Of a DNA stretch of 64,000 nt, positions 11,530-46,951 are shown piece after piece. Both the position numbers and the translations under genes were made by a program. The notes under the pieces were generated by a model that did not search any database, was not told the DNA's origin, and saw nothing but the letters and a program-made list of their open reading frames with translations. Positions within the stretch are counted from its first letter, which is position 1, and every line of letters begins with the position of its first letter. Origin of the DNA: an uncultured Bacteroidota bacterium (GTDB taxonomy: Bacteria; Bacteroidota; Bacteroidia; UKL13-3); contig CAIUDH010000041.1 in NCBI GenBank assembly GCA_903897855.1, positions 44,879 through 108,878 of the forward strand, written 5' to 3'.

Positions 11530-12915
11530 ATGAAATTAAAATTACTCTTTATTTCTTTCTTTACCCTCGTTTTCTTTAACCTACGTGCCTCGACTACGGT
11601 TCCCGCTATCATCAATAGCAATCAAGTATGGGATGTGAGTGGCAGCCCTTATTTAGTGGGTGTGAATGTGCTCATCACGCAAGGTGTGAAGGTAGATGTG
11701 AAACCTGGCGTTTCCATCATCTCGAATGGGTTGTGTCGTTTAACTGTGAACGGCACCTTCTCGGCCATGGGCAAGTCCGATTCCTTAATTTTAATTAAAG
11801 GCCTATCGATCTATTTTTCCGATTCATCAGTAGATTATAATCCAAGCAGCAATACTGGTTCGCAATTTACATACTGTTTATTCAAACCAATTTACAAATC
11901 GTCGAGCAGTGTCATTACCCTCGACCGAACCAATTTGAATATCGACTATTGCGATTTTGATAGTATCAGCTACCCTATTCAAGGTTTTGGAAGTGGCGAT
12001 TCAGTAAAACTATGGATTTCGAACAGTACTTTTCAGGGCGATGGTTTCGGCTTCTTAATTTATGGATTACGTCAGAATAGCTTTATCAGTTTCACCCATA
12101 ATGCCGTTTTTAATTTTGGCTATATTTTACTAGCAGAGACTAATATCATACAATACTGCTATTTCTATGGCATGCGCTATTACGCGTCCATCAACGATTA
12201 TGGTTATGCCCGTTCGGCGCTCATTAGTTGTAACTATTTTAAGAATGGAAATTATACCTATTGCCCAGCCATTGACCTGAGCACAGTAAATTCTACCAGC
12301 CGTCATATCGTCATTCAAAACAATGAGTTTGATTCGATGGAGGTGTTCATTAAAATGCCCTGTTACTATGTAGCCACCGATACTGTTGAGGTGAATAATA
12401 ACGACTTCCTTCATTATCGAAATAAAGCAGTCTCCTATAGTGGTTGCTCGAGTACTACTGGCATTTTTCATGTCGTTGATTTCACCAATAACTATTGGAA
12501 CACCACCGATACCACCCTCATTAAAGCGGCCATCTATGATTATCGTAATGATATTAAAATTCCCTTTAAAATTGATTTCAGTAACTTTAAAAGCAGCCCT
12601 GTTTCCAGCTGCTGGCCACTTTCGGCAGTCGATGCTCCGAAGAAAGTAAACACTGGAATAACTACAACGAGAAAAAATGCTACTCATTTTGCCATTTTCC
12701 CGAATCCGGCTTTAACAATTCTAAATATCGAAACCGACTTACAAGGCAAGCTAGTGTGTACGATTAAAGATATTACCTCTCGTGAAGTGGCACACCAAGA
12801 AATGGATGCTGATCACTCGAGCATTAATGTGAGTAACTTAAAACCAGGAATTTATTCTGTAATACTACTCAACGAAGACGGAGAACAATATATTTTGAAG
12901 CTGATTCATAATTAA
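11530..12915 (+). CDS. Secreted protein with a T9SS C-terminal sorting domain (beta-helix-like passenger)
   Basis: Signal peptide. C-terminal FPNPALTILNIETDL...KPGIYSVILLNEDGEQYILKLIHN matches the Por secretion CTD. Confidence 0.6.
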   Translation: MKLKLLFISFFTLVFFNLRASTTVPAIINSNQVWDVSGSPYLVGVNVLITQGVKVDVKPGVSIISNGLCRLTVNGTFSAMGKSDSLILIKGLSIYFSDSSVDYNPSSNTGSQFTYCLFKPIYKSSSSVITLDRTNLNIDYCDFDSISYPIQGFGSGDSVKLWISNSTFQGDGFGFLIYGLRQNSFISFTHNAVFNFGYILLAETNIIQYCYFYGMRYYASINDYGYARSALISCNYFKNGNYTYCPAIDLSTVNSTSRHIVIQNNEFDSMEVFIKMPCYYVATDTVEVNNNDFLHYRNKAVSYSGCSSTTGIFHVVDFTNNYWNTTDTTLIKAAIYDYRNDIKIPFKIDFSNFKSSPVSSCWPLSAVDAPKKVNTGITTTRKNATHFAIFPNPALTILNIETDLQGKLVCTIKDITSREVAHQEMDADHSSINVSNLKPGIYSVILLNEDGEQYILKLIHN

Positions 12916-12936
12916 GAAAAACGCTATATCACAGAA

Positions 12937-12966
12937 GCCTTGGTTTATTTTAACCAGGGCTTTTTT
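12937..12966 (+). terminator. Rho-independent terminator after the T9SS gene
   Basis: GCCTTGGTT / AACCAGGGC 9-bp stem (one G-U pair), a 6-nt loop, then TTTTTT. Confidence 0.5.
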
Positions 12967-13089
12967 ATTGGCCAACACCTTTCTGACTAGTATCTCACTT
13001 CATAAGTAAATTTAGGACGGCACACTCGGCTCGTGAGTTTGAAGAAGAATAAAATTTAATTAAGTTAAAGAGTGGTTCCGACCATTCAT

Positions 13090-13122
13090 AAAAAAGCCCC
13101 AATCTAATCATTAGATTGGGGC
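13090..13122 (-). terminator. Rho-independent terminator of rpoB
   Basis: Perfect 13-bp inverted repeat GCCCCAATCTAAT / ATTAGATTGGGGC with a flanking A6 on the + strand (U-run on the rpoB strand), 38 nt after the rpoB stop. Confidence 0.55.
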
Positions 13123-13159
13123 TTTAAATGGTGTTTTCTTTTATATTGTCAGTGGTTTA

Positions 13160-16100
13160 TTACTCTGCTGTCACATCCAATCCTAATCCACGTAATTCAT
13201 GAATTAATACATTAAATGATTCTGGCAATTGTGGTGTTGGCATTGGTTCTCCTTTTACAATAGCCTCATACGATTTTGCACGACCGATAATATCATCACT
13301 CTTAATCGTTAATACTTCCTGTAAAATATTGGATGCACCAAATGCTTCCAATGCCCAAACCTCCATCTCACCAAAACGCTGACCTCCAAATTGTGCCTTA
13401 CCTCCCAACGGCTGCTGGGTAATTAATGAGTATGGCCCTATTGAACGAGCGTGTAACTTATCATCCACCATGTGTCCTAATTTCAACATGTATATGATAC
13501 CTACCGTAGTTTTTTGTTCGAAGCGAACCCCTGTTTGTCCATCGGTTAAATACGTCTGGCAATTTTCGGGTAAGCCTGCTTTTACAATATACTCGGCAAT
13601 TTGTTCTTGTGATGCACCATCAAAAATAGGAGTTGCAAATTTAGTTCCCAACACTTCACCAGCCCAACCCAACATGGTCTCATAAATTTGTCCTAAGTTC
13701 ATACGACTTGGCACACCTAATGGATTTAATACAATATCCACTGGCGTTCCATCTTCTAAGAACGGCATATCTTCGCGAGCTACGATACGGGCTACAACAC
13801 CCTTATTACCGTGGCGACCCGCCATCTTATCCCCTACTTTCAATTTACGTTTGGTAGCGATATATACTTTAGCCATCTGCACAATACCGGTAGGTAATTC
13901 ATCCCCTACTGTTAGTGCAAATTCTTCACGACGGTATTTACCAACCAAGTCATGTGCCGTACGACGGTAGTTAACGAGGATATCACGAATTAAAATATTT
14001 TTATCTTTATCGGTAGTCCAGGCCGTAGGATTCGTTAAATCATAATCAAGCTCAAACAAAGCTTTTTGTGTGAATTTAACCCCTTTACCTATTAACTCCT
14101 GCTCATAAACATCATACACACCTTGCGATGTCTTTCCGTTTAGCAAAGTCATCAATTTCTCCACCAAACGCTCTTTTAACTTCGCTAAGTTTTTGCTATG
14201 CGTATCGGCTAATTTTGAAGTAACAACCTTCTCTTGATCTTTGGTAAGCTTATCTTTTTTGATTTTTGTGAAAAGCTTTTTGTCGATGATGATACCATTG
14301 GTTGATGGAGGAGCTTTTAATGAAGCATCTTTCACATCGCCTGCTTTATCACCAAAGATAGCACGTAATAACTTTTCTTCCGGTGAAGGTTCTGTTTCTC
14401 CTTTCGGAGTAATTTTACCAATAAGGATATCGCCTTCATGCACTTGCGCACCGATACGAATTAATCCGTTCTCATCGAGGTTACGTGTAGCTTCTTCACT
14501 CACATTCGGAATATCGTTGGTTAGCTCTTCTTCACCACGTTTTGTATCACGCACTTCCAATTCGTATTCTGTAACATGAATAGAAGTAAACACATCTTCC
14601 TGCACTGCTTTTTCACTAATCACGATCGCATCTTCAAAGTTAAAACCTTGCCAAGGCATGAATGCCACTTTTAGGTTCCTTCCTAAAGCTAATTCACCAA
14701 GTTCGGTAGCATAACCTTCAATGATTACTTCACCTTTCTTAATTTTATCGCCTTTCTTTACAAGAGGGCGTTGATTTACGCAGGTATTCTGATTCGTACG
14801 TTTGAATTTTGTCAAATGATATGTTTTCATTTCACCATCAAAATTCAATAATTCCTCTTCAGCGGTGAGGTTATAACTAACCACCACTTTTTCCGCATCA
14901 GCATATTCTACTTCACCATTACCTTCGGCCACCACTACGGCGCGGCTATCTCTAGCCACACGACCTTCCAGTCCGGTTCCAACGATAGGCGATTGTGGTT
15001 TCAATAATGGCACAGCCTGACGTTGCATGTTCGATCCCATCAAAGCACGGTTCGCATCATCATGTTCCAAAAATGGAATTAAGGAAGCTGCGATACTTAC
15101 AATTTGGTTCGGTGCAATATCCATATACTGCGCTTCTTCGGGCGATATCGACGGGAAGTCACCATCTTTACGAGCACGTACTCTTTCGGTTAAGAAATTT
15201 CCTTTCGCATCATATTTAGAGTTCGCTTGTGCAATTGTTTTTCCATCTTCATCTTCCGCACTCACATAAATCACAGGCTCATCCACTTTCACTTTACCAT
15301 TCACAATTTTACGATACGGAGTTTCAATGAAACCCATACCATTTACTTTAGCATGAACACAAAGTGAAGAGATCAAACCGATATTCGGGCCTTCCGGAGT
15401 TTCAATGGTACATAAGCGACCATAATGTGTATAATGTACATCTCGCACCTCAAAACCTGCACGCTCTCTGCTCAAACCACCAGGGCCTAACGCCGACATA
15501 CGGCGTTTGTGTGTAATCTCAGCCAATGGATTGGTTTGATCCATAAACTGCGATAGTTGAGAAGTTCCGAAAAATGAATTGATAACAGAGGATAAAGTAC
15601 GGGCATTAATCAAATCGGAAGGGTTGAACACCTCATTATCACGAATGTTCATACGCTCACGAATGGTACGGGCCATACGTGCCAAACCTACCCCAAACTG
15701 AGCAAAAAGTTGCTCACCTACGGTACGCACACGACGATTACTTAAGTGGTCAATATCATCCACATCGGCTTTATCATTACTTAATTTAATTAAGTTTTTG
15801 ATGATATCGATGATGTCGTCTTTGGTTAATACACGGCTTTTCTCGTCAACTTTATTAAGCTTGCGATTAATACGGTAGCGACCTACTTCTCCTAAATCAT
15901 AACGTTTATCAGAGAAGAACAGACGCTCAATAACACCACGCGCAGTTTCCTCATCGGGCGCATCGGCATTACGCAACTGGCGGTAGATAAGCTCGATTGC
16001 TTCTTTTCCGTTGTTGGACGTATCTTTTTGTAACGTATTATGAATGATGGCAAAGTCATTCGATTTACTTTCTTCTTTATGTAAAATAATAGTTTGAACT

Positions 16101-16963
16101 TTAGCTTCTAATATCGTATCGATATGCTCCTCTTTCAAGTCAACATCACGCTCAATTAAAACCTCATTACGTTCAATAGATACTACTTCACCGGTATCTT
16201 CATCAACAAAATCTTCAACCCAGGTACGTAAAACCCGTGCTGCTAATTTTCTACCTACGGCATTCTTCAATCCCGACTTAGAAACTTTAATTTCTTCGGC
16301 AAGATTGAAAATATTTAAAATATCCTTATCGCTTTCAAAACCAATGGCACGGAATAAAGTAGTTACCGGGAATTTCTTTTTACGATCGATATAAGCATAC
16401 ATCACGTTATTAACGTCGGTAGCGAATTCAATCCAAGAACCTTTGAATGGGATGATACGAGCCGAATATAGTTTTGTACCGTTGGTATGATAGCTTTGAC
16501 CAAAGAACACTCCAGGTGAACGATGTAGTTGCGAAACAACCACACGCTCAGCACCGTTGATAACAAAAGTACCTTTGGAAGTCATGTAAGGAATGTTACC
16601 TAAGTAAACGTCCTGTACAATGGTTTCAAAATCTTCATGATCTTTATCAGTACAAAACAATTTGAGTTTTGCTTTCAGAGGTACATTATAGGTTAATCCT
16701 CTGTCCATACATTCTTCGATGCTGTATTTAGGAGGATCTACAAAGTAGTCGATGAATTCCAGTACGAAAATACCACGTGTATCAGAGATAGGGAAATTCT
16801 CCATGAACACCTTGTACAGTCCTTGCGATTTTTTATTTTCTGTCGATGCATCGAGTTGAAAGAACTCTTTGTACGACTGGATTTGCACATCTAAAAAGTC
16901 GGGGTAGTCGATTACTTTCTCTACCGATGCAAAACTGATACGATTGATGGATTTAGTTGCCAA
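13160..16963 (-). CDS. rpoB: DNA-directed RNA polymerase beta subunit
   Basis: Full-length 1267-aa RpoB with unmistakable conserved blocks (N-terminal [22 protein letters not shown]-terminal [24 protein letters not shown]...[18 protein letters not shown]). Confidence 0.97.
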
Positions 16964-17231
16964 TGCTTATCAATATTAATGGTTAATAATTCTTTTTCTT
17001 CTGCCAATAACGCAATCCTAACTAATGATAAACAGACAAACCCGTATTTTGGTACTGGTCGGATGCTTGTGTGACGTCACAATTGCCTGCATCATCCATT
17101 TTTGCAACTTATTATGCGCAATGCATAGGTGGTATCATGCCTTAGATAATCAGCTTGCGAAGCTAATGGCAGTAACCATATTATATTAATGATTTAGAAA
17201 AAACAAATCTCGAGTATTGCAAAAAGGAGTG

Positions 17232-17239
17232 CAAATATA
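17232..17239 (-). promoter_or_regulatory. Candidate Bacteroidetes-type -7 box (TATATTTG) for rpoB, implying a leader of about 270 nt
   Basis: CAAATATA on the + strand is TATATTTG on the - strand. The same GTGCAAATATA 11-mer occurs upstream of maeB at 20346. Confidence 0.3.
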
Positions 17240-17337
17240 GCTTTTTTTTCGATAAAATCAAATTTTGGCCAAAGAATTGTAGGGAGTCGACGATTTTGGC
17301 TTGCCCGACCGTCTAAAAAAGTGTTTTTGAGCTTAAC

Positions 17338-17853
17338 TCAATGGCTTGAATCTAAAATCATTTCTTTTAAATCCACCTCAATGCTTGATTTAACAGATTC
17401 TACCACTTTCCCAATTTCTTTACCGTCTTTGTAAACAATAATCGTGGGCACCTTTGAAAGCATATTTTTGTCCGCTTCTCCTTTTAGTGATTTTTTATTT
17501 CGGTCGACCCCGTATAAAACTACAGCAGATTCAGGAAATTGTGCCTCATCAAGCACCCGATAAAATTTAGGAAGGAGATTCTGTGTGTCATCGCACCAGG
17601 TACCCGCAAAAACGACAAACGTCACTCTGGCGTTATATGCCTTCAAATACAAAATATCCGTATTCGCTGCAGTATTATAACTATCGTAATTTTTTTTGAA
17701 CCAAGGAAATTTGTCATCGTTAAGCTGCTTACGTTTAATTCCACCTACGAGTATCTTCTCATTTCTGTCGGTAGTAATCCATTTATACGATTTGCTGCAG
17801 CTCATACTCACAAGTGAGAACATGGCGATTACGATAATTGTTTTGGGTAACAT
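17338..17853 (-). CDS. Thioredoxin-fold (TlpA-like) lipoprotein
   Basis: Signal peptide with LVSMSC. FAGTWCDDTQNLLPKF at the usual Trx active-site position, though with a single Cys. Confidence 0.6.
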   Translation of the reverse strand: MLPKTIIVIAMFSLVSMSCSKSYKWITTDRNEKILVGGIKRKQLNDDKFPWFKKNYDSYNTAANTDILYLKAYNARVTFVVFAGTWCDDTQNLLPKFYRVLDEAQFPESAVVLYGVDRNKKSLKGEADKNMLSKVPTIIVYKDGKEIGKVVESVKSSIEVDLKEMILDSSH

Positions 17854-18043
17854 TATAGTTCAGGTTTTAAAATACAAAAATACACATTCTTTCGTACTCA
17901 GTAAAAGACCATTGCAATAACAATTTGTATTATTCAATTGACCCGACTGCCACTATCGATGGTGGCAGTCATAACTAATATTTCATTTACAAAAGGAGCT
18001 TTACGACCAGGGTCGCATCAGCTACGAAATCGTTCATCTAACA

Positions 18044-20305
18044 CTATCGCTGAGCATCCACTACAGCCAAGGTCACCATATTCACAATATCGCGAATTTT
18101 ACTTCCCAGTTGTAAGATATGTACCGATTTTTTCATACCTATTAGCACCGGACCGATCACCTCGCCATCGCCTAATTCTTGCATTAAATTATAGGCAATA
18201 TTTCCTGCCGAAAGTTTCGGAAAGATAAGGATATTGGCAGCACCATCAGCCAAAGCACTAAAGGGATAATTTTCTTTTAGCAACTCTTGATTGAGGGCAA
18301 ATTTTGCCTGCATCTCGCCATCAATAATTAAATCGGGGTCTTGCTCCTTTATTAATCGTAAAGCCTCACGCATTTTTTTAGGTGTTTCTCCTTCGGCGCT
18401 GCCAAAATTACTATAACTAAGTAAGGCTACTCTTGGCACAATATTGAATTTGCGAACTTCAAGGCAAGCCAGTTTGCAAATCGCCGCTAAGTCGATGGCG
18501 GTAGGGTCATGATTGACGGTTGTATCGGCCAAGAATATAGGGCCACGCTTGGTAAGCATCACATACATCCCGGCTACGATATGCGTATCGTCGCGCCTAC
18601 CAATGACTTGCAATGCCGGGCGGATGGTACTTGGATAATTACGTGTTAGACCTGAAATCAAGGCATCGGCTCTGCCGGTTTCTACCATCATACAGCCATA
18701 AAAATTTCGCTGAGTCATCGATTTGCGAGCCTCGTGCATGGTGGTACCCTTACGCTGACGCTTGGTATAAAATCGAGTTGCAAATTCCTCTAATAGCGCT
18801 TCGTCTTCATTATAGGGGTCGATAATAGGGCAATCGTGCAAATCAATATTATGTTCATTCATAATTTCCTCTACCCGTTTGCGTGTGCCTAACAAAATAG
18901 GAAGCGCAATACCTTCGTCTTTAACAATTTGAGCCGCACGTAAGATATTGTAGTTCTCTGCCTCAGCAAATACAACTCTTTTCGGGTTTTTCTTAGCTTT
19001 CTCCGTAATGAAACGAATGAATTTATTGTCTTTCCCGATACGTTTTTGCAGCTCTATCTTATACTCATCCCAGTTGGTGATTGGTTTTTTTGCAACCCCA
19101 CTTTCAATGGCGGCTTTTGCCACGGCCACCGACACGGTAGTGAGCAATCGAGGATCAATGGGTTTAGGAATTATATATTGTCTGCCAAACTCCAACGACA
19201 TTTGATCATAGGCCGCTTTCACATTCTCTGGAACTGGCTCATGTGCCAATTGGGCCAATGCCTTGATGGCTGCCAATTTCATAGCCTCGTTTATGGTGGT
19301 GGCCCGCACATCCAAAGCCCCTCTGAAAATGTATGGGAATCCCAATACATTATTCACCTGGTTGGGGTAATCACTTCTTCCGGTGGCCACAATGACATCA
19401 GGGCGTGCTGCAATGGCTAAATTATATTCGATCTCAGGATCGGGGTTAGCCATCGCAAATACAATTGGATTGATTGCCATGCTGCGAATCATATCTTGCG
19501 ATACTACATCAGCTTTGCTTAATCCAATAAAAACATCCGCACCCCGCATGGCTTCTTCCAACGTCTGAATATTTCTAGTCGTAGCAAACATTCTTTTTCT
19601 GGCATCCAATCCCTTATTATCGGTTTTTAGGACTCCCTTACTATCGAGCATGATAATATTTTCAACTTTCACGCCTAAGGCCATAAATATTTTAGTACAA
19701 GAAATGGCGGCCGCTCCTGCCCCATTTACCACAATTACAACTTCTTCGATTTTTTTCCCTACAATTTCCAAGGCATTAATGAGCCCGGCACCACTCACGA
19801 TGGCCGTTCCGTGCTGGTCGTCGTGCATAATGGGGATATTGAGTTCTTGCTTCAGTCGTTCTTCAATTTCAAAACATTCAGGAGCTTTGATATCTTCCAG
19901 GTTGACGCCTCCAAAAGTAGGTTCTAAAATTTTTACGGTACGCACAAACTCATCAATATTGGTGGTGTTGAGTTCGATGTCGAATACGTCGATATCGGCA
20001 AATATTTTAAAGAGTAAGCCTTTACCTTCCATCACTGGCTTACTGGCTTCAGGTCCTATGTTACCTAAACCAAGTACGGCCGTACCATTGCTAATTACAG
20101 CCACCAAATTCCCCTTTGCGGTGTACTTATAAACATCTTCTACATTCTTAGCAATCTCCAAGCAAGGTGCGGCCACTCCTGGACTATAAGCTAAGCTTAG
20201 GTCACGTTTGGTTTGTGTGGGTTTGGTAGGGACTACCTCAATTTTGCCCGGACGATTTTTACTGTGATAATCGAGAGCATCTTTTGTCAATTTTTCGTTA
20301 CTCAT
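18044..20305 (-). CDS. maeB: NADP-dependent malic enzyme (malic enzyme plus a phosphotransacetylase-like C-terminal domain)
   Basis: 753 aa. N-terminal malic-enzyme motifs (DLSLAYSPGVA, VVVNGAGAAAISC). C-terminal PTA-like domain. Confidence 0.9.
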   Translation of the reverse strand: MSNEKLTKDALDYHSKNRPGKIEVVPTKPTQTKRDLSLAYSPGVAAPCLEIAKNVEDVYKYTAKGNLVAVISNGTAVLGLGNIGPEASKPVMEGKGLLFKIFADIDVFDIELNTTNIDEFVRTVKILEPTFGGVNLEDIKAPECFEIEERLKQELNIPIMHDDQHGTAIVSGAGLINALEIVGKKIEEVVIVVNGAGAAAISCTKIFMALGVKVENIIMLDSKGVLKTDNKGLDARKRMFATTRNIQTLEEAMRGADVFIGLSKADVVSQDMIRSMAINPIVFAMANPDPEIEYNLAIAARPDVIVATGRSDYPNQVNNVLGFPYIFRGALDVRATTINEAMKLAAIKALAQLAHEPVPENVKAAYDQMSLEFGRQYIIPKPIDPRLLTTVSVAVAKAAIESGVAKKPITNWDEYKIELQKRIGKDNKFIRFITEKAKKNPKRVVFAEAENYNILRAAQIVKDEGIALPILLGTRKRVEEIMNEHNIDLHDCPIIDPYNEDEALLEEFATRFYTKRQRKGTTMHEARKSMTQRNFYGCMMVETGRADALISGLTRNYPSTIRPALQVIGRRDDTHIVAGMYVMLTKRGPIFLADTTVNHDPTAIDLAAICKLACLEVRKFNIVPRVALLSYSNFGSAEGETPKKMREALRLIKEQDPDLIIDGEMQAKFALNQELLKENYPFSALADGAANILIFPKLSAGNIAYNLMQELGDGEVIGPVLIGMKKSVHILQLGSKIRDIVNMVTLAVVDAQR

Positions 20306-25104: not shown

Positions 25105-28100
25105 TTACGCCAACTTGCGTTTCACCTCGGTAATTTCGTATCCTTCGATAATATCGCCGGCAATAATATTATTAAAGCCTTTGATATTTAAACCGCACTC
25201 ATAACCACCTAATACCTCTTTCACATCGTCTTTAAAACGTTTTAACGACTCCAATTCGCCGGTATGAATTACCACTCCATCACGTATGACACGTATTTTT
25301 GTTTTGCGTTCTATTTTTCCATCAAGCACCATACATCCTGCAATATTTCCAACCTTAGTGATGTTAAACACTTCACGTATTTCCACGTTACAAAGAATTT
25401 TCTCCTCTGTAGTAGGGGCTAGCATTCCTTCCATCGCTGCTTTAATATCGTTGATGGCATCGTAGATGATGGCATAATATTTAATGTCGATACCCTCAGC
25501 CTCGCCTAGCTTGCGTGCCTGTGCACTGGGGCGAACTTGAAAGCCAATGATAATGGCGTCGGAGGCCGAAGCCAACATTACGTCGCCTTCAGAGATCTGA
25601 CCAACACCTTGATGTAGGATAGAAATCTGCACTTCGTTGGTACTGAGTTTCTGGAATGAATCGGTCAAAGCCTGCACCGAACCATCTACGTCGGCTTTCA
25701 CGATCAATTTCAATTCTTTGAAATTACCGATAGCCAATCGACGTCCGATCTCATCTAAAGTAATATGTTTTTGTGTACGTATACCTTGCTCACGCATCAA
25801 CTGCTGACGACGTGTGGCGATGTCTTTGGCTAAGTCTTCATCTGAATACACTTTGAATTTTTCGCCCGATTGTGGTGCTCCCGAAAAACCTAATATTTTC
25901 ACCGGTGTTGAGGGGCCCGCTTTTTCGATTACGACACCACGCTCATTGAACAGTGCACGTACCTTAGTGGCGTATTGCCCTGCGAGCAACATATCGCCAC
26001 GTCTAAGAGTACCTTCTTGCACCATCATGGAAGCTACAATACCTCTTCCTTTCTCCATCGTTGCTTCGAGCACCGTTCCTACTGCCAACTTATCTGGATT
26101 CGCTTTAAGCTGAAGCATTTCTGCCTCAATTAAAACCTTATCTAACAAGAGTTCTATATTTAATCCTTTTTTGGCCGATATTTCCTGGGTTTGATATTTA
26201 CCACCCCATTCTTCTACCAAGATATTCATCACCGAAAGCTGCTCCCGAATTTTTTCCGGATTAGCCCCTGCTTTATCAATTTTATTAAATGCAAATATGA
26301 TGGGCACGTTCGCGGCTTGAGCATGACTAATAGCCTCGCGTGTTTGAGGCATGATAGCATCATCCGCGGCAATTACAATAATAACAATATCTGTTACTTG
26401 AGCTCCACGTGCACGCATGGCGGTAAATGCTTCGTGACCCGGAGTATCAATGAATGCGATACGTTTACCATTGGCCAAGGTTACTTCATAAGCACCCAAA
26501 TGCTGGGTGATTCCTCCCGCTTCGCCGGCCACTACATTGGCATTACGAATAAAGTCGAGGAGGGATGTTTTACCATGATCCACGTGACCCATGATAGTCA
26601 CAATAGGGGGACGCTCGAGCATCAACTCTGGATCATCAGCAACCTCTTCCTCCACATCGATAATCTCTTCCGATTCGGCTCCAACAAATTCTACTTTATA
26701 ATCAAATTCCTCAGCAACAATGGTAATCATTTCAGCATCGAGTCGTTGGTTGATGGAGACCATCATACCCAAGGTCATACAGGCTGATATTACTTCAGTC
26801 ACTGGCACATCCATCATCTTTGCTAAATCATTTGCACTTACGAATTCTGTTACCTTAAGTACTTTTGATTCCTCCTCTTGCTGCATTCTGTTTTGTTCAG
26901 AACGTTCGGCATGGATGTCACGCTTTTGCTTGCTAAATTTACGACGGTCAGATCCGGTAGCACCTGCTCCGGCATTACTCATCCGATTCAGGGTTTGTTT
27001 TACTTTGTCGCCTACTTCTTGCTTGGTAAACTCATTTGCAGGACGACGGAAATTACCTCCGCCTCTATTGCCTCCGGCTGGGCCTCTGTTGTTTGCATTG
27101 TTATTGCCACCAAAGCCTGTTCCAGGCTTATTGGGTGTGCCGGTGCCCGGCGTTTTATTATCGCCCGTTGTATTAGGGCTCTTAAATACTTTCGTATCAC
27201 TTCCACCTATATAATTCGATTTGTTCAAACGTTTACGTTTCTCTTTCTTTTCAGCAGAGCTTAAACGAACCTTTTCTTTATCGACAGGGATTTCAATTTT
27301 ACTTAAAATTTTCGGGCCTTCCAGTTTTACATATTTGGTTACTGTTAACTCACCTTCCTCGCGTTTCTCTTGCACATCACCCTTTAATGCTTCACTGATA
27401 TTCAGTGGCGACTTTAACTTTTTCTTTTCTTCAGCCGACAAAGTTTCTACTTTCTGTGTATTCACTACCGCTGCTACCTCCTTCGCTTTTGATTCTTCTT
27501 TTATTTTTTGGTCTTCTTTGGTTTTAGCCAATTTCTTTTTCTCTTTCTCTACCCCTTCCTTCTCGGCCTCAATATCTTGTTTTGTTTTTCGTGCTTTGGG
27601 TTTCTTACCGTTCTCGTCGGGAAGCTCGATGGTATCGATGAGTTTGGTTCCTTTAAGTTTGTTTTTTGCAACCGGCGTTGTTTCGGTTTCAATAACCTCC
27701 ACTTCCTTTTCTGTCGGTGTGTTTTCGACTTCGATAACGGGCACGATCACCGGTTCTGCAATTACCTCTGCCACTACCTCAACAACGGTTTCAACGATAG
27801 GTTCAACTTTCTTCTCCTCCGCCTTTTTCTTTTTTGCTTTTAGTTCATCTTCAATGGTTTGCTCCTTTATATGCTGTAAAATCTCATTGAGGTTGTCTTC
27901 TTCTTTTTCAAGCGCTGTACTCACCTTTTTCTCCGGTGCTGTAATAATTTCACTCTTCACAAACTTATCCTCGTTGCGCTTCTCGGCTTGATCTTTCAGC
28001 GCTTTATCGGATGAAAACTCGGCCATTAAAAGGTCATGAGCTTCAGGTGAAACTTTCGCGTTGGCGCCTTTTGACTTGTCGAAATCGATTCCTTTTTTAG

Positions 28101-28185
28101 TCAGGAATTCAATCAATGGATTGATACTTCTGCCAAGCTCACGGGCAATTTTATTTAAACTTACTGATGGTTTTGGGTCACTCAT
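25105..28185 (-). CDS. infB: Translation initiation factor IF-2
   Basis: GTPase G-domain (GHVDHGKTSLLD, DTPGHEAF, NKID). Lys/Glu-rich low-complexity N-terminal region. 1026 aa. Confidence 0.95.
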   Translation of the reverse strand: MSDPKPSVSLNKIARELGRSINPLIEFLTKKGIDFDKSKGANAKVSPEAHDLLMAEFSSDKALKDQAEKRNEDKFVKSEIITAPEKKVSTALEKEEDNLNEILQHIKEQTIEDELKAKKKKAEEKKVEPIVETVVEVVAEVIAEPVIVPVIEVENTPTEKEVEVIETETTPVAKNKLKGTKLIDTIELPDENGKKPKARKTKQDIEAEKEGVEKEKKKLAKTKEDQKIKEESKAKEVAAVVNTQKVETLSAEEKKKLKSPLNISEALKGDVQEKREEGELTVTKYVKLEGPKILSKIEIPVDKEKVRLSSAEKKEKRKRLNKSNYIGGSDTKVFKSPNTTGDNKTPGTGTPNKPGTGFGGNNNANNRGPAGGNRGGGNFRRPANEFTKQEVGDKVKQTLNRMSNAGAGATGSDRRKFSKQKRDIHAERSEQNRMQQEEESKVLKVTEFVSANDLAKMMDVPVTEVISACMTLGMMVSINQRLDAEMITIVAEEFDYKVEFVGAESEEIIDVEEEVADDPELMLERPPIVTIMGHVDHGKTSLLDFIRNANVVAGEAGGITQHLGAYEVTLANGKRIAFIDTPGHEAFTAMRARGAQVTDIVIIVIAADDAIMPQTREAISHAQAANVPIIFAFNKIDKAGANPEKIREQLSVMNILVEEWGGKYQTQEISAKKGLNIELLLDKVLIEAEMLQLKANPDKLAVGTVLEATMEKGRGIVASMMVQEGTLRRGDMLLAGQYATKVRALFNERGVVIEKAGPSTPVKILGFSGAPQSGEKFKVYSDEDLAKDIATRRQQLMREQGIRTQKHITLDEIGRRLAIGNFKELKLIVKADVDGSVQALTDSFQKLSTNEVQISILHQGVGQISEGDVMLASASDAIIIGFQVRPSAQARKLGEAEGIDIKYYAIIYDAINDIKAAMEGMLAPTTEEKILCNVEIREVFNITKVGNIAGCMVLDGKIERKTKIRVIRDGVVIHTGELESLKRFKDDVKEVLGGYECGLNIKGFNNIIAGDIIEGYEITEVKRKLA

Positions 28186-28352
28186 TTATTCTATATATAC
28201 TTTTTTACGCTTTGTGAAAATTACAATAGCACTGAACCGCTGCATTAGGGAATGCCTGCATGACGCTACACAAAACTTATATATACGTTCAGCAATCCCT
28301 TACATTTGATTGTAATTCTTTAATGTCAATAATATGTTTGTCGAAGAATTCA

Positions 28353-29621
28353 TTAACCTTCAAACTCAGCAAGCAAAATCTGCTTGATTTCTCTAATGGT
28401 TTCTTCTTCTAGTTCGGTACGGCGCACCAGCTCATCATCGCTCAAGGCCAAAACACTACGTGCCGTATCGCATCCTGTTTTCTTTAACTCATCGATAATC
28501 CAACTATCTATCTCATCTGCAAACTCTTCCAAGTCAACATCGTCCTCCTCATTAATTTCCTCACCATCCCGGAATACATCGACCGTATAACCAGTAAGTT
28601 CGCCTGCTAATTTAATGTTCTGACCTCCTTTACCGATAGCCATGGCCACTTGGTCGGGTTTCAAGAACACAGAGGCACGCTTCGTTTCTTCATCCAACTT
28701 CACACTGGTAATTTTTGCGGGGTTTAAGGCCCTTGAAATGTACAAAATAGTGTTGGTGGTGAAATTCACAACGTCGATATTCTCGTTGCGTAATTCACGT
28801 ACGATACTATGAATCCGGCTTCCTTTCATTCCCACACAGGCACCTACAGGGTCAACGCGGTCGTCATAACTTTCGACAGCTACCTTGGCACGCTCACCAG
28901 GTAATCTCACAATTTTCTTGATAGCAATAACGCCATCCATAATTTCAGGAACTTCACGTTCGAGTAATCGTTCTAAAAATATAGGTGCCGTACGCGATAA
29001 CGATATTTTAGGCACTGCATTATTCATTTCTACTTTTTCAATCACAGCACGGATGCTATCGCCTTTCTTAAAAAAGTCGGCGCCGATCATGTTGGCACGT
29101 GGCAACGAAAGCTCATTTCCTTCGTGCAATATCATCATCTCTTTTTTCCAAATCTGATACACCTCACCTACAATAACTTCACCCACCATTTCTTTGTATT
29201 TACGAAAAAGATCGGCGTTTTTTAACTCTAAGCTACGGCTGTTTAGTGTTTGACGAGCATTATAGATGGCGCGACGTTTAAACTGGCTCAAATCTACTTT
29301 TACTGCAATATCATCGCCAATTTCACAATCATCGACATGCTTCACGGCGTCGCTATATTCCATTTCGGTAGCAGTACTGTAAATATCCTCATCGGCTACC
29401 ACAGTATAATTTTGCCAAATTTCAAGCTCTCCGTTATCTGGATTCACGATAATATCAAAGTTCTCGTCGCTGCCGTATTCTTTTTTTAGCATCGCACGAA
29501 AAACATCTTCTTGAACACGAACAACCGTTGCTTTGTCAATATTCTTTGAATCTTTAAACTCAGCAAAAGCTTCAATCAACTCGCTTTTGTCGATTTCGGT
29601 TTTTTTGACTTTAGATTTCAT
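28353..29621 (-). CDS. nusA: Transcription termination/antitermination factor NusA
   Basis: NusA N-terminal, S1 and KH-domain motifs (GVIAIKKIVRLPGERAKVAV, GACVGMKGSRIHSIVRELRNENIDVV). Synteny rimP-nusA-infB. Confidence 0.95.
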   Translation of the reverse strand: MKSKVKKTEIDKSELIEAFAEFKDSKNIDKATVVRVQEDVFRAMLKKEYGSDENFDIIVNPDNGELEIWQNYTVVADEDIYSTATEMEYSDAVKHVDDCEIGDDIAVKVDLSQFKRRAIYNARQTLNSRSLELKNADLFRKYKEMVGEVIVGEVYQIWKKEMMILHEGNELSLPRANMIGADFFKKGDSIRAVIEKVEMNNAVPKISLSRTAPIFLERLLEREVPEIMDGVIAIKKIVRLPGERAKVAVESYDDRVDPVGACVGMKGSRIHSIVRELRNENIDVVNFTTNTILYISRALNPAKITSVKLDEETKRASVFLKPDQVAMAIGKGGQNIKLAGELTGYTVDVFRDGEEINEEDDVDLEEFADEIDSWIIDELKKTGCDTARSVLALSDDELVRRTELEEETIREIKQILLAEFEG

Positions 29622-32109: not shown

Positions 32110-33063
32110 TTACAACCGATTCAAATGCAATTGTATTCTTGCCATAATATCTTTAAACTCTGGTTGCCCATTATAATAAAGCTTGGAAGTGGATTCATAG
32201 CAATTTTGGAATGATTCTCTTATCTCCGAATCACTTAATAAAAGCGCAGGGTGTTCTCGAAGTGGTATTTGGTTGTCAGCTCCTTTGATTCTAGCTGCTT
32301 TATGTGCTAAATATTCAGGAGTTCCAATGAAAGCCTTTATATCAGAATTGCCAAGCAGGCAATAAACGTCATAATATTGGCGCATGAAGTTTTTATCATC
32401 AGAAGCTCCAGGATTATCTCTGTTGCTATATTTGCGAACTATTGTTTGAAGTTTTTCAATCAGGGTGTAACCTGGATGATAGCATTGTACGCCTGTTGCA
32501 GTATTGTTTATGTAATTGATGTGTGCTCCTATTGAAATAAGGTGTTCCCAAATCCAAGAAGAGATATCGATGGGGCTATTGGGTGTTACGGTGTCGAATC
32601 CAGCTTCTAATAAAATCAAATCTTTCAGCCCTTCCAACGTAGGGGTATAACTTTCATAGTAGAGTCTTATTCCTCCACTTCGAAATTTTTCTTTATCATC
32701 AAATTCATGGTCTCTAACAATTTCAATGATCCCATTTATCGAAAGCGATTTTGCAAACACATCATAAAATTCTTTTCGTGCCGTTTTTACTTGTGATTTG
32801 TCTTCTTTCCCTTCAATGAATAAGCCAAAATTTGTACGAATGTGAATGTCGATGTCCTCTTAAAATCTATGAATTAATCCATAGCCCTTGGATAATGACG
32901 TTCCTCCTTTCAATTCAAACTCAATTCCCTGTTGTTGCAATGAGTACAATGCATGCATGATCCAATAATCTTTCTCAACCAATGTAATATCAATGCCTTT
33001 CTTGGCAGATACAATGGAGAGAAGCTCTTTGAATTCAGGGTCGTTATGTATGAAATCAAGCAT
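32110..33063 (-). pseudogene. AbiEii-family nucleotidyltransferase toxin (type IV TA) interrupted by a single in-frame TAA
   Basis: The 67-aa ORF (33063-32860: EKDYWIMHALY...KGGTSLSKGYGLIHRF) and the 216-aa ORF (32760-32110) are in the same frame. They are separated only by a TAA at 32860-32862. Reading through gives ...LIHRF*EDIDIHIRTNFG..., where a conserved Ser normally sits. Confidence 0.75.
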
Positions 33064-33637
33064 GCTGGAGTACGTTTCTAACTATTGATTTTAAAGTGCG
33101 CTTTGTTTTGCCTGTTCCATATTGTTGAGTAGCCTTCATCAAAGCATCAGCATTAAAACTACGTACATTATTTGGCAATTTATCTAAGGCTTGTGTTTGG
33201 TCTTCTGCTAGGTTATCCAAATTGTTTAATAAATCAACGAGCAAATATTCTCTTGAGATATTTTTAGGGAAAGAGGATTTTAGTTTGAATTCGAATGTCT
33301 TTCCATTCAGTTGAAATTCGCCTTTGCGCTTATGGTTATATACCCATGTGGAATTGTAAAGTTGTGTTAGGCCTAGTCCTAATGAATTAAAACTATTTGG
33401 GGATACCAAAAGAAAATCTTCGTCCTTCAGAAAACTTTCTACTACTTGGCGGTCATCCGGAGGAACTGCCCCAAATTTTGATTGTTTAGGCGCGTAATAC
33501 AATCCTTGGTTTAATTTTACCAATGTTCCGTCTTTGGTTAATTGAACCAAATGCCTATCTATGGCCGTGGAATAATATTCCAGGTCAGAACGGCGATATA
33601 CCTCACCCTGCTTGATATGTTGACGGAGCAAATTCAT
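33056..33637 (-). CDS. AbiEi-family antitoxin / transcriptional regulator
   Basis: N-terminal MNLLRQHIKQGEVYRRSDLE...GTLVKLNQGLYYAP resembles the AbiEi_4 winged-helix domain. It overlaps the toxin start by 8 nt, the typical TA operon layout. Confidence 0.7.
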   Translation of the reverse strand: MNLLRQHIKQGEVYRRSDLEYYSTAIDRHLVQLTKDGTLVKLNQGLYYAPKQSKFGAVPPDDRQVVESFLKDEDFLLVSPNSFNSLGLGLTQLYNSTWVYNHKRKGEFQLNGKTFEFKLKSSFPKNISREYLLVDLLNNLDNLAEDQTQALDKLPNNVRSFNADALMKATQQYGTGKTKRTLKSIVRNVLQHA

Positions 33638-33667
33638 TTCTTTGATACAAAAGTACAGATATTTTTT

Positions 33668-33705
33668 GAATTGCATGCAAAAAACGGAAAAATTCATGCA
33701 AAAAC
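33668..33705. promoter_or_regulatory. Two direct copies of an AATT(G)CATGCAAAAAC box in the abiEi promoter region, containing the palindrome TGCATGCA; candidate autoregulatory operator
   Basis: GAATTGCATGCAAAAAAC (33668-33685) and AAATTCATGCAAAAAC (33690-33705), 30 to 70 nt upstream of the abiEi start. Confidence 0.3.
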
Positions 33706-33803
33706 TACCAATCCTCACCTATCTCATCCATTTTTGCTACCTGTTGCAGCATAGCTTCACCTTCTATAAAAGTTACCTAACCATTGGTTTAAAAACCCGT
33801 TTG

Positions 33804-36704
33804 CTAATATCCGAAATATCTGAATGCGGCCCAATAATAGGGTTGTTTGTAGGTTTCTCCGAATACACCAGCAATAAAATGTTGCCTGGTAATATGTAAA
33901 GCTTCAGAATAACTTTTCTTGTCGTTGAAAACCGACTTGTAAAAATCGGACATAAATATACCTGTTGCTTTATCATCTACTTTCCACCACGAAGCGATAA
34001 CCGCATTGGCTCCGGCTAAAAAAAAAGCCACCGGTAAATTATTTACTTCCTGTGACTGATCAGGAAGGCCCGCTGCTGTTTCACAGGCTGAAAGGCACAC
34101 CAATCCGGCATTAAGATGCAAGTTGGCTATTTCATTGAAGAGCAGAAACCCATCCTCTTTATTGCCTGCTTTCTCGGTTAATACCAAGGAGTTGTCACGA
34201 TAATTATTGAGTGAGACCATTCCATGAACAGCAAAATGCAAAATATCGTAATCCATGAGTTTATTAGAATCACTTAATTCTTTCAGTCGGCTTTCAGAAA
34301 GGCGATCTTCATCAAGGATCACTACTTCAGGCAGCAAATTTCTGATGGCCGACAATTCATTTTTTGTACCAGGCAAATCACCCCAGTTGGCGTATCCATC
34401 CTCTGCAAAATCATACCCCCGGCCTTTAGAGTTATGCGGATTAAACTTACTATAAGCGGCATTACCCAAGGCAAGCATCCTACCATGATTAGTTTTTGAT
34501 TTGGCCTTTAATAAATGAAACACGGTGAAAGAAGGCTCGTATACAATATTGTATAAACTTCCAAGATATTCTCCCTTTTCATTTTTTAAGGTCTCAAAGG
34601 GAATTAAGATGCTTCCGTAATCACCGGAGATGTAAATTGTTTTTTTGTTCTGCAGTATCTTTTCAAATGGTTTGATATAAATATAGTAAAGGATCTCATT
34701 AAATGCAGCCATTTCAGCTTTGGTATCCCGTTTCCTTTCCGGCTCTATGATACTTGCACCTCTAACATTGCCATGTTGCATCAGGTTGTTTAAGTTAGTC
34801 GCAATAATGAAAAGTAGCTTACTGCTTGTTTTGATTTCTTCTGTAGTTAAAATTTTCTCTACTTGTTGCATCGCCATATTTAGTTGGTTTGCCAGTGAAT
34901 CAATATTTAGCTCTTCATGATTCTTAAGTAATTTGTTCAACAGCGCGTGGTCTTCTTTTACGAGCATAACAGTATCATGACTTATAGCGAGGCCGAAAGC
35001 CAGTCCACTTAGACTCGACTTTGAAAATGTAATTGCCACTTCATCGCTTTTGAGTTCTGATGACAGTTTCTTAATACTGATAGTTTCGAGCGGACAGCAG
35101 GTTTTAGTTAGTTTAGGGAAAAATGCGTTGGCTCTCGATTCTTCCGTAAGTTTAAACAATTCGTCATTTTTTGTTTTCATTAATGCCATTTTTTCGAGTA
35201 GCGCAAACGCAGGATAAATGTCGGTTAAAGGCTTGTAAAGCAACTCGGAATTGTTTTTTACATAATTTAAATAATGTTCTATAGCCCGGTTGAGATAATA
35301 CTCAGCACTGTCTGTTTGCTTCAACCCATAGTATGACATTCCCGTAATTTCAAGCAAATTAGATATATCAATGTCAGCATAATTTTCGTAATTCGTAATA
35401 AACAATCTACTCATTGAGATGCATTCTTTATACTTTCCTATACTATTCAGAAACTGACAATAATTATAGTCGTCAAAAAACTCATCAACCGGCTGAGGGT
35501 GTTTCTCTGCATTTAATTTCTTACCTAGCCTATAATAATATTCAACAGAATCGAGCTCTTTCTTGTCACCAAAGATGACCATCAGTTTCCCTGTTGATAA
35601 GCTTTTTGCATCGGTAAGGCTACATTGGTTGGCAAGAATAAAAGAGCGTTTAAAATAAAAAAGTGCTGAGTCAGTTTCTGACAAATCAAGGTATTTATTA
35701 CCCATCGAATAATTAATAATAAACTGTTTGTCGAAATTATGAGCAAGCACTGCTAAATCTAAAGCTTGGCGCATTAAAAACATCCCTTCCTTTTCAGAAT
35801 TACCCAATTCATACAACACATCAATGATAAATGCGGTGTCGTTCAGATCTTTGGAAATAGAAAGCGCATTCATGAAATAATCATTGATAGCAATCGTTTT
35901 ACTACCCGTGTTATAATAAATCCATCCTAGGTCCCAGTAAAAGTCACGTAAAGTATAAAGCCGTAAACTTTGATTTTTTTGGTCTTCGACAATGAATTTT
36001 TCTTTCAATCTAATTATCACCTCATCGGTAGCCTCATAGTCGCCAGCAATGGTAAACTGATAGATAGAATCAAGAATTTCATTTCCGAATTTTTTATTTG
36101 AATATTGGTTATTCAAATAATCAGTAAAACTATATTTAAGTGTGCTCAATTTATACGGGTAATCTCCTTGCTGCTCAAAGAAGTTTAAATCGGCCATCAT
36201 ACTCTCTTCAAAAGCTTCGGCATTCGGAATATAATTCATTGCTCTATGAAAGTATTCCTGAAGTTTTCTCGGCTGCTTCAAATACGCATAGATATACCCC
36301 AGATTTAGATAGATAGAATAGTTGCAACTATTATATTTTAAGGCTTTAAGACAATATTTCTCGGCTCTGGCATATTTCTTATCTAATAACAAAAACCATC
36401 CTGTACTATTCCAATAATTCGCATTCTTTGGTGAGAGACGAATCAATCGATCGCCGTATTCAACCGCTACTCCATAATTTTTTAATTTGTAGTAATTATG
36501 AATTGAATATTCCAACGCCTTGATATTGTCAGGCTCTACAGCTAAAACCTTTTGAAGACCCACCAACGATGCTTCATAATGACCATTATTGAATGCTATA
36601 GTGGAATTCGACAACCATTGCTCAAGGCTGTCGGTTTGTGCTTTCGATAAATTCAATATGGACAACAACACAACGAGGAAAAGATACTTTTTGAAGATCA
36701 TCAT
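33804..36704 (-). CDS. Secreted TPR-repeat protein with a C-terminal CHAT (caspase-like) protease domain
   Basis: Signal peptide (LLSILNLSKAQ). Many TPR-like helices. C-terminal His/Cys dyad context LHFAVHGMV ... GLVCLSACETAAG, typical of CHAT. Confidence 0.8.
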   Translation of the reverse strand: MMIFKKYLFLVVLLSILNLSKAQTDSLEQWLSNSTIAFNNGHYEASLVGLQKVLAVEPDNIKALEYSIHNYYKLKNYGVAVEYGDRLIRLSPKNANYWNSTGWFLLLDKKYARAEKYCLKALKYNSCNYSIYLNLGYIYAYLKQPRKLQEYFHRAMNYIPNAEAFEESMMADLNFFEQQGDYPYKLSTLKYSFTDYLNNQYSNKKFGNEILDSIYQFTIAGDYEATDEVIIRLKEKFIVEDQKNQSLRLYTLRDFYWDLGWIYYNTGSKTIAINDYFMNALSISKDLNDTAFIIDVLYELGNSEKEGMFLMRQALDLAVLAHNFDKQFIINYSMGNKYLDLSETDSALFYFKRSFILANQCSLTDAKSLSTGKLMVIFGDKKELDSVEYYYRLGKKLNAEKHPQPVDEFFDDYNYCQFLNSIGKYKECISMSRLFITNYENYADIDISNLLEITGMSYYGLKQTDSAEYYLNRAIEHYLNYVKNNSELLYKPLTDIYPAFALLEKMALMKTKNDELFKLTEESRANAFFPKLTKTCCPLETISIKKLSSELKSDEVAITFSKSSLSGLAFGLAISHDTVMLVKEDHALLNKLLKNHEELNIDSLANQLNMAMQQVEKILTTEEIKTSSKLLFIIATNLNNLMQHGNVRGASIIEPERKRDTKAEMAAFNEILYYIYIKPFEKILQNKKTIYISGDYGSILIPFETLKNEKGEYLGSLYNIVYEPSFTVFHLLKAKSKTNHGRMLALGNAAYSKFNPHNSKGRGYDFAEDGYANWGDLPGTKNELSAIRNLLPEVVILDEDRLSESRLKELSDSNKLMDYDILHFAVHGMVSLNNYRDNSLVLTEKAGNKEDGFLLFNEIANLHLNAGLVCLSACETAAGLPDQSQEVNNLPVAFFLAGANAVIASWWKVDDKATGIFMSDFYKSVFNDKKSYSEALHITRQHFIAGVFGETYKQPYYWAAFRYFGY

Positions 36705-43489: not shown

Positions 43490-43565
43490 AATAACATTTA
43501 AGACCGATAGCCTACCAGGATTAGGGTTGTACCTAATTGTTCGCCAATTTATAATATTTAAGAAA

Positions 43566-45557: not shown

Positions 45558-45565
45558 GACAACCT

Positions 45566-46951
45566 ATGAACGACAATATTTTTCAAGGATATAAAGGAAA
45601 TGCACTCGCTATATTGCAAAAATATACTGCCCGTGTATGGGCGGCCGTCGATATCGACACTTCCAGAGGCTTATTTCAAGGCACTATTTTGCCTCGAGCC
45701 GAGAACACCGATGAAGAGCATATCGTACTGAAAATTATTACCGGATATAATATTGGTGTAGAGGTAAATACCATCACCGAAATTCGTGAAACGGGATATA
45801 AAAAGGCAAACTATCAAATACCTGAAAAAAAATTCCCAGTCACGGCCGGATTGCCTAATGTAAAACTTTTCGGAACTGGTGGCACTATTGCCTCACGCCT
45901 CGACTATCGCACTGGCGCTGTGATCCCAGCCTTTTCTCCGGGCGAACTCTATGGTGCTGTGCCCGAATTAGCTGATATCTGCAATTTAGATACGGAGAAA
46001 ATATTTGCCGTGTTCAGTGAAAATATGGGGCCCAAACAATATCTTGAGCTTGCCCATGCCATTGTAAAAGAAATACGTAATGGCATCGATGGTATCGTTA
46101 TTGGCCATGGCACTGATACTTTGCAGCATACCGCTGCGGTGCTTACCTATATGGTTCGTAACTCACCGGTGCCCATCATTTTGGTAGGCTCTCAACGCTC
46201 CTCCGACCGACCCAGCTCCGATGCTGCCTTAAATCTTATGCACGCTATGTTTACGGCAGGCACCTCCGATATTGCAGAGGTGATGGTATGTATGTTCGGC
46301 CCCACCTCCGATGAATATGGGCTATTGCATCGCGGAACTCGTGTACGAAAAATGCATTCTTCCTATCGTTCTACCTTTCGCACTATAGGCGATACGCCAG
46401 TGGCGATGGTAACGCGTAAAAGTATTACTCCAATAAAAAAAGAATATAACCACCGCAGAAAAGATACAGAGGTAGAACTCTATCCTTTTTTTAGCGAGAA
46501 AGCCACCATGCTCTATTATTATCCTGGTATGAAACCGGATGTGATGTTTGCGATGATTGATGCGGGTTATAAAGGAATAATTATTGTTGGCACCGGCCTT
46601 GGACACGTGAATAAAGAGCTTTACCCCGCTCTCGTAAGAGCGAAAGAAGAAGGCGTGTGTGTGTTTATGGTGGTGCAAACCATCTGGGGTTTTGTACATA
46701 TGTTTGTGTATGACACCGGTCGCGATATGATGGCCAAAGGCGTCGTACCTTTAGGAAATATGCTTCCTGAAACCGCTTATATAAAATTAGGATGGGTGCT
46801 GGGACAAACGGAGGACCCTGCCGAAATAAAGAAGATGATGCTCACGCCCATTTGCTCCGACATTACCGAAAGAGAGCCTTATAATGGCTATTTAGTACTC
46901 CAAGGGGGCGTGCCTGAAGTGGATGAATTTATCAGGAAAGTACATAAATAA
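45566..46951 (+). CDS. gatD: GatD-like protein (asparaginase-fold subunit D of the archaeal-type amidotransferase)
   Basis: A non-asparaginase N-terminal domain of about 100 aa precedes LFGTGGTIASRLDYRTGAVIPAF and GIVIGHGTDTL. Length and motif placement fit GatD rather than 330-aa type I asparaginase. Confidence 0.7.
   Translation: MNDNIFQGYKGNALAILQKYTARVWAAVDIDTSRGLFQGTILPRAENTDEEHIVLKIITGYNIGVEVNTITEIRETGYKKANYQIPEKKFPVTAGLPNVKLFGTGGTIASRLDYRTGAVIPAFSPGELYGAVPELADICNLDTEKIFAVFSENMGPKQYLELAHAIVKEIRNGIDGIVIGHGTDTLQHTAAVLTYMVRNSPVPIILVGSQRSSDRPSSDAALNLMHAMFTAGTSDIAEVMVCMFGPTSDEYGLLHRGTRVRKMHSSYRSTFRTIGDTPVAMVTRKSITPIKKEYNHRRKDTEVELYPFFSEKATMLYYYPGMKPDVMFAMIDAGYKGIIIVGTGLGHVNKELYPALVRAKEEGVCVFMVVQTIWGFVHMFVYDTGRDMMAKGVVPLGNMLPETAYIKLGWVLGQTEDPAEIKKMMLTPICSDITEREPYNGYLVLQGGVPEVDEFIRKVHK

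Follow-up and report, generated by a model that had tools for sequence, protein, structure and literature searches.

An rpoB gene unlinked from rplKAJL and rpoC in a lineage of uncultured Bacteroidota

The genes rpoB and rpoC, for the beta and beta' subunits of RNA polymerase, form one of the most stable gene pairs of bacteria, which is usually explained by the equimolar and coordinated synthesis of two subunits that assemble together. Why, then, does an rpoB stand without its partner in a 64-kb stretch of DNA from an uncultured Bacteroidota bacterium (contig CAIUDH010000041.1, positions 44,879 to 108,878; hereafter, at its full length, the window)? An earlier note on this DNA had described the gene as a monocistronic unit detached from the rplKAJL-rpoBC cluster and had left three explanations: a real rearrangement, a second divergent copy of rpoB, or an assembly join. 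Here we report that the unlinking of rpoB from rplKAJL and from rpoC is real, stable, and lineage-specific. We consider it very probable that the gene is an ordinary housekeeping rpoB, left as an independent transcription unit by a two-step break-up of the cluster in this freshwater lineage.

The rpoB gene and its transcription unit

By homology to known families, the product of the window gene is a bacterial RNA polymerase beta subunit. The open reading frame is complete (1267 residues), as had been claimed, and starts with TTG in the context TTGGCA, the same as in several relatives. The protein carries the six Rpb2 domains of Pfam and matches the NCBIfam equivalog TIGR02013 with 1836.9 bits (cutoff 801), residues 6-1265 being aligned to profile positions 3-1237 of 1238, so that the match is full-length and includes all domains. 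Motifs that we take to be those of the catalytic site and the rifampicin pocket of bacterial beta subunits are present in the translation, and by comparison with E. coli the key Asp, His, and Ser of rifampicin cluster I are presumably retained. The protein is 77-82% identical to the RpoB of ordinary Bacteroidota, and in a neighbour-joining tree the clade of the window nests within the canonical rpoB of this phylum. In comparison with the rpoB of a second species (contig L086, see below), the nonsynonymous divergence (dN) was 0.0124 and the synonymous divergence (dS) 0.99, and the resulting dN/dS of 0.0125 indicates strong purifying selection, as expected of an essential gene. The gene itself is ordinary; it is the gene order that deviates.

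The partner genes were searched by tblastn with Flavobacterium proteins as queries, and no match to rpoC, rplL, rplJ, rplA, rplK, or nusG was detected in the 64-kb window, in agreement with the earlier note. On other contigs carrying the same window proteins, rpoC was not among the genes called in the 10 kb past either end of the window, which gives a span with no called rpoC of 23 kb downstream and 57 kb upstream of rpoB, about 84 kb with the window. Neither rplL nor rplJ lies directly upstream of rpoB, and downstream there is a terminator and a convergent gene instead of rpoC. This convergent gene encodes a secreted protein with a sorting tail of the type IX secretion system (T9SS), and the upstream neighbour, separated by 374 nt, encodes a thioredoxin-like protein whose N-terminus is of the lipoprotein type and whose WCDDT motif has a single Cys; both neighbours had been correctly recognised in the earlier note, which gave about 370 nt for the upstream interval. 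The coordinates of all these features are collected in Table 1.

Table 1. Features of the rpoB locus in the window (position 1 is the first letter of the window).
Feature	Coordinates	Strand	Details
Convergent T9SS-sorted secreted protein	11530..12915	+	461 aa; Por_Secre_tail / T9SS type A sorting domain
Terminator of the T9SS cargo gene	12933..12968	+	13-bp stem, -21.4 kcal/mol, z = -4.8; delimits the rpoB unit downstream
rpoB intrinsic terminator	13087..13125	-	14-bp stem, 3-nt loop, U6
rpoB coding sequence	13160..16963	-	RNA polymerase beta subunit; TTG start; Pfam and TIGR02013
5' leader	16964..17227	-	about 264 nt; conserved, possibly structured
Predicted Bacteroidota sigma-A promoter	17232..17262	-	TTTG (17262-17259), N19, TATATTTG (17239-17232)
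Thioredoxin-like putative lipoprotein	17338..17853	-	171 aa; upstream same-strand neighbour; profile match weak, below cutoff

A strong terminator had been announced within 40 nt of rpoB, and it was found 34 nt past the stop codon, where the arms 13093-13108 and 13110-13125 form a perfect 16-nt inverted repeat. Its folding energy (-28.2 kcal/mol, z = -6.2 against shuffled sequences) and its U-tract are those of an intrinsic terminator; it was overlooked by a simple terminator scanner. In the second species there is a terminator at the same place with a different sequence, and the downstream spacer cannot be aligned between the two.

The consensus of the primary sigma factor of Bacteroidota consists of a -33 TTTG and a -7 TAnnTTTG (PMC7366714, PMC9723704). 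Both motifs, with a 19-nt spacer, are located about 270 nt upstream of rpoB, and transcription is predicted to start near 17227, which would place the -7 box at -12 to -5. The arrangement TTTG-N19-TATATTTG is invariant, and at an equal distance from the start codon, in the window, in three further contigs (L086, L172, and L089), and in the sister lineage represented by contig L084. Over all the loci fetched, the background of the motif was 0.033 per kb per strand, and it was found in none of the 88 canonical rplL-rpoB spacers examined.

The region from -330 to -100, which includes promoter and leader, showed 70-93% identity between the window and L086, and the promoter itself 85-93%. In the same comparison, the four-fold degenerate sites of rpoB were 54% identical and the DNA just upstream of the promoter only 20-35%. 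As the identity of promoter and leader exceeds both of these levels, the leader appears to be under selection. Taking these features together, monocistronic expression of rpoB is suggested by the sequence, and its leader may have a regulatory role. The fold of the leader is less marked: RNAalifold with four sequences of the clade gave several small helices with 55 pairs, of which 8 show compensatory changes, from too few sequences to count as evidence, and the fold of the single sequence was no better than that of its shuffles (z = -1.08). No Rfam family matched positions 12500-18300, where just two sub-threshold chance matches appeared.

It was also observed that 18 nt of the leader (17078-17095) are 89% complementary to positions 13216-13233 of the minus-strand mRNA, which precede the rpoB stop by about 55-72 nt. 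This complementarity is only partly kept in L172, with one apparently compensatory change. A pairing of the 5' and 3' parts of the rpoB mRNA was not adopted, the 18-nt match being within the range of chance for the region.

Conservation in the clade and gene order in relatives

Considering that an unusual gene order in a metagenomic contig may be produced by the assembly, the junctions at both sides of rpoB were compared among public data. The exact RpoB protein is encoded, between the same flanks, on no fewer than 11 contigs, which come from independent public assemblies, and the junctions of rpoB are the same in at least five independent assemblies, including one of a second species. The gene also occurs in the assembly ERZ27263733. 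Two long contigs, of 192 kb (L081) and 168 kb (ERZ1426637), carry the same genes on both sides of rpoB. The second species is represented by L086 and by L087, the latter from the metagenome-assembled genome GCA_947505015.1 (CANNHT01); in this species the RpoB protein is 98.4% identical and the gene order is malic enzyme, thioredoxin-like protein, and rpoB, followed by the convergent T9SS cargo gene, HmuY, and a TonB-dependent receptor. With respect to the window, L086 has 87% nucleotide identity in rpoB and 70-79% in the flanks. Since dS is about 0.99 at the low dN/dS given above, the arrangement has persisted through species-level divergence. In a further contig, ERZ1426853, an IS3-family transposase pair (HTH_Tnp_1 and rve) lies between the malic-enzyme and thioredoxin-like genes and the order is otherwise unchanged; mobile elements have therefore been active in the neighbourhood of rpoB.

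A join made by the assembler, or a chimera, at the flanks of rpoB would find an argument in three short contigs, namely L082, L083, and a contig of ERZ1426529, which stop at the same point, 117 nt past the rpoB stop (window position about 13043). This point lies between the two convergent terminators, in an AT-rich spacer. Nevertheless, the junction is bridged in six contigs (the window, L081, ERZ1426637, L086, L087, and ERZ1426853), some of which differ by 13% within the gene and by 20-30% within the flanks, and scaffold_1233, from a sample with a broken contig, has the T9SS cargo gene at its end, just as the order in the window predicts. The shared end is a recurrent assembly break and not a conflicting join; it is probably caused by strain variation in the spacer, which is unalignable between species. 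With the same junctions in independent assemblies and in a diverged species, we rejected the assembly join, whose probability we regard as negligible.

The gene orders of the relatives, ranked by the identity of their RpoB, describe how the arrangement may have arisen. Among several variants with 97.5-99% identity, those for which the context was retrieved (P0003, P0001, and P0005) have the arrangement of the window. At 93% (P0006) rpoB is also solo, with neither rplL nor rpoC on its 17.9-kb contig, and its flanks are unrelated to those of the window: a sensor kinase and a response regulator upstream, a porin and an ammonium transporter downstream. At 82%, the sister in the neighbour-joining tree (P0007, on contig L084) has a T9SS-sorted gene, the same promoter and leader, rpoB, and then rpoC, 63-69 nt after rpoB and with no terminator between them. 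At 77-79% (L088, L085, and L169) the order is the canonical tuf-secE-nusG-rplK-rplA-rplJ-rplL-rpoB-rpoC. The comparison of synteny with close relatives that the earlier note proposed thus places the split in a small clade only.

Because L085, L088, and L169 are canonical, the ancestors of the clade had the rplKAJL-rpoBC cluster. In a first step, before the split from the lineage of L084, rpoBC would have moved away from rplKAJL and come under a sigma-A promoter of its own, with a leader of about 265 nt. In a second step, rpoB would have been cut off from rpoC by a breakpoint between the two genes and would have acquired its intrinsic terminator; this step would belong to the ancestor of the window clade, taken as the sequences whose rpoB is at least 93% identical. 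The beta subunit would then be translated from an mRNA of its own, monocistronic and about 4.1 kb long (from about 17227 to about 13087), and beta' would come from another locus; independent promoters, perhaps together with the conserved leader, would have to set the balance between the two. This two-step break-up seems the most economical reading of the gene orders of the relatives. As the flanks of P0006 differ, a later rearrangement took place around the rpoB unit. In the window, no insertion sequence ends, direct repeats, or long inverted repeats were found bracketing the unit, and no tRNA genes lie near it.

Scanning genome contigs with the full RpoB, the best relative among the matches listed was 76% identical, so that the species of the window was not among them, and scanning metagenomes with the N-terminal 130 residues, L089 was the single clade member among the matches listed. 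In both cases the matches listed were dominated by universal peptide motifs, in the metagenomes by CMDRGLTY. The rpoC of the host was searched with a 479-residue RpoC fragment of L084, whose N-terminus is 83-86% identical to all and gave mainly short fragments; by identity, hundreds of other taxa are at least as near to L084 as the window clade is. P0130, P0132, P0133, and P0134, taken as candidates for the rpoC of the clade, proved to be a canonical locus with frameshifted gene calls. A case of this kind was seen at 6434-14314 of L169 (a contig in ENA), where rpoB was called as 1057 and 109 residues and rpoC as 643 and 767 residues; these split reading frames are most likely assembly frameshift errors, and frameshifted calls like these account for the many "partial" RpoC entries on long contigs in the protein database.

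Alternative readings of the solo rpoB

The possibility that had been raised of a second rpoB copy, that is, a specialised paralogue coexisting with a canonical rpoB-rpoC pair elsewhere in the genome, would agree with the lack of rpoC within about 84 kb, with a modest acceleration of the rate of RpoB in the clade, and with the different flanks of P0006, such as a mobile extra copy might have. It has to be reconciled, however, with a promoter and leader orthologous to those of the sister, whose rpoB directly precedes rpoC, and with the low dN/dS and the equivalog-level score on TIGR02013. The rifampicin cluster looks canonical, RpoB is not strongly divergent from that of ordinary Bacteroidota, and in the tree the clade falls inside, not outside, their canonical rpoB. 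We therefore regard the paralogue as very unlikely.

It may also be asked whether rpoB is co-transcribed with the thioredoxin-like gene, the promoter motif being incidental or secondary. Both genes are on the same strand and adjacent in the window, in L086, in L172, and in the contig of P0001. Yet the thioredoxin-like gene is absent upstream of rpoB in P0006 and in L084, where rpoB persists, and L084 keeps promoter and leader without it (P0006 provides gene order only, not DNA). Moreover, it is the promoter that is conserved, and not the DNA between the stop of the thioredoxin-like gene and the promoter, for which the poorly conserved identity values were given above. Co-transcription is thus unlikely in our opinion, if somewhat less so than the paralogue. 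The real rearrangement, the remaining option of the earlier note, is shared by several species of the clade and has its intermediate in the sister lineage.

Several observations weigh against an ordinary rpoB transcribed independently after a break-up of the cluster. The rpoC of the host was not located in the approximately 84 kb covered, nor its rplKAJL in the window, and rpoB is therefore only probably a single-copy gene. Only a weak hairpin follows the thioredoxin-like gene, so read-through into rpoB is possible, and monocistronic expression is a prediction from motifs. In addition, the solo clade has accumulated about 1.5 times more lineage-specific RpoB substitutions than its rpoC-linked sister in the relative-rate test of Tajima (91 against 56 with the first outgroup, chi-square about 8; chi-square of at least 3.8 with five of six outgroups), and this acceleration could be that of a relaxed or specialised copy just as well as that of a lineage evolving fast in general. 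The clade has 37 specific changes at RpoB positions that are at least 95% conserved in 114 other matches (P0007-P0120), and 4 of these 37 are in the last 37 residues.

Rarity of the arrangement and its meaning

That rpoB-rpoC adjacency is highly conserved had been assumed in the earlier note, and a survey of loci fetched from species-representative genomes and metagenomes outside the window clade bore this out. The two genes were adjacent in 124 loci, with a median gap of 72 nt and a terminator-like hairpin in the spacer of only 5 of them, and there were two exceptions: L033, a Saprospiraceae metagenome-assembled genome with a 1.8-kb insertion separating the two, and L046, from the cultured Chitinophagaceae Flavihumibacter stibioxidans YS-17, which has a strong terminator after rpoB and no rpoC within 10 kb. 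Loci in which rpoB is detached only from rplL are not very rare among Bacteroidota: they make up at least 7 of the first 80, mostly of Chitinophagaceae, together with Chryseobacterium piscicola, and some of these loci also carry the promoter motif upstream of rpoB. A search of full-text literature brought up no account of Bacteroidota in which rpoB and rpoC are unlinked, which, at incomplete coverage, is weak evidence of novelty.

In comparison with the canonical cluster, as in E. coli and in most of the Bacteroidota loci fetched, the gene product is the same and the TTG context is as in relatives. In the canonical cluster, rplL and rpoB are separated by about 150 nt that often contain a hairpin and lack the promoter motif, and rpoC lies at the median distance already mentioned. 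The window instead lacks rplL upstream and rpoC downstream, and its rpoB comes with a promoter of its own, a long leader, and a terminator. The sister L084 shares promoter, leader architecture, and TTG start with the window, and differs in that its rpoBC, although off rplL, is still paired and has no terminator between the genes. F. stibioxidans resembles the window in its terminator and missing rpoC, with its rplL 8.6 kb upstream, but the event was independent and the family is distant, with an rpoB 70% identical and no TTTG-N17-21-TAnnTTTG motif within 600 nt upstream of it.

Other departures from the rpoB-rpoC arrangement are the fused rpoBC of Helicobacter and Wolbachia and the split rpoC1/rpoC2 of cyanobacteria. 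Beta/beta' fusions have their own NCBIfam models (NF007172 and NF011417). In these cases the gene boundaries are altered and adjacency is kept, whereas in the window clade the genes are presumably intact and unlinked. Some actinomycetes (Nonomuraea, Nocardia) have duplicate rpoB paralogues, extra copies with substitutions in the rifampicin cluster; as in the window, rpoB is away from rpoC, but the cluster of the window is canonical and there is no sign of a second copy. We see the organisation described here as a rare form of a very conserved arrangement, for which a cultured bacterium offers at least one independent parallel, and not as a new system.

Two observations concern the spacers of the compared loci. 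In the rplL-rpoB spacers of L001, L004, and L088 there is a strong, conserved-looking hairpin right after rplL (for example CAGACTCCGAC...GTCGGGGTCTA), reminiscent of the rplL-rpoB attenuator of E. coli; it is absent from the leader of the window. At 13800-14070 of L046, repeated palindromic units (GTCTGACG / CGTCAGAC) flank the terminator after the solo rpoB, and they may be a repeat element at the breakpoint.

The remainder of the window consists of ordinary chromosomal genes, including a rimP-nusA-infB operon (nusA and infB at 25105-29621). Two adjoining genes at 43527-46951 (+) match archaeal-type Glu-tRNA(Gln) amidotransferase subunits, GatE with 377 bits on TIGR00134 (cutoff 320) and GatD with 486 bits on TIGR02153 (cutoff 324). 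Since GatDE is considered a signature of archaea, finding it in a Bacteroidota chromosome may merit separate attention. At 32110-36704 (-), an AbiEii-family toxin gene and its DUF6088 partner, adjoined by a 966-residue TPR-CHAT protein, look like a small defence or toxin-antitoxin islet.

A key aspect of a solo rpoB is how the amounts of beta and beta' are matched. One idea is that the leader of about 264 nt could be a structured and previously undescribed autoregulatory RNA which senses the level of RNA polymerase or of free subunits and tunes the translation or stability of rpoB, thereby balancing beta and beta'; we hold it as a speculation that is improbable, although less so than co-transcription. 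Whatever the means, a free-living lineage that keeps rpoB and rpoC apart over a dS of about 1, together with a sister in the intermediate state, is a natural experiment which indicates that the linkage is dispensable, and it is a place to ask how the balance of subunits is restored. It also has a practical side, as checks of annotation or binning based on synteny that expect rpoBC adjacency would wrongly flag genomes with a solo rpoB. The cultured F. stibioxidans is an organism in which the question of linkage could be tested.

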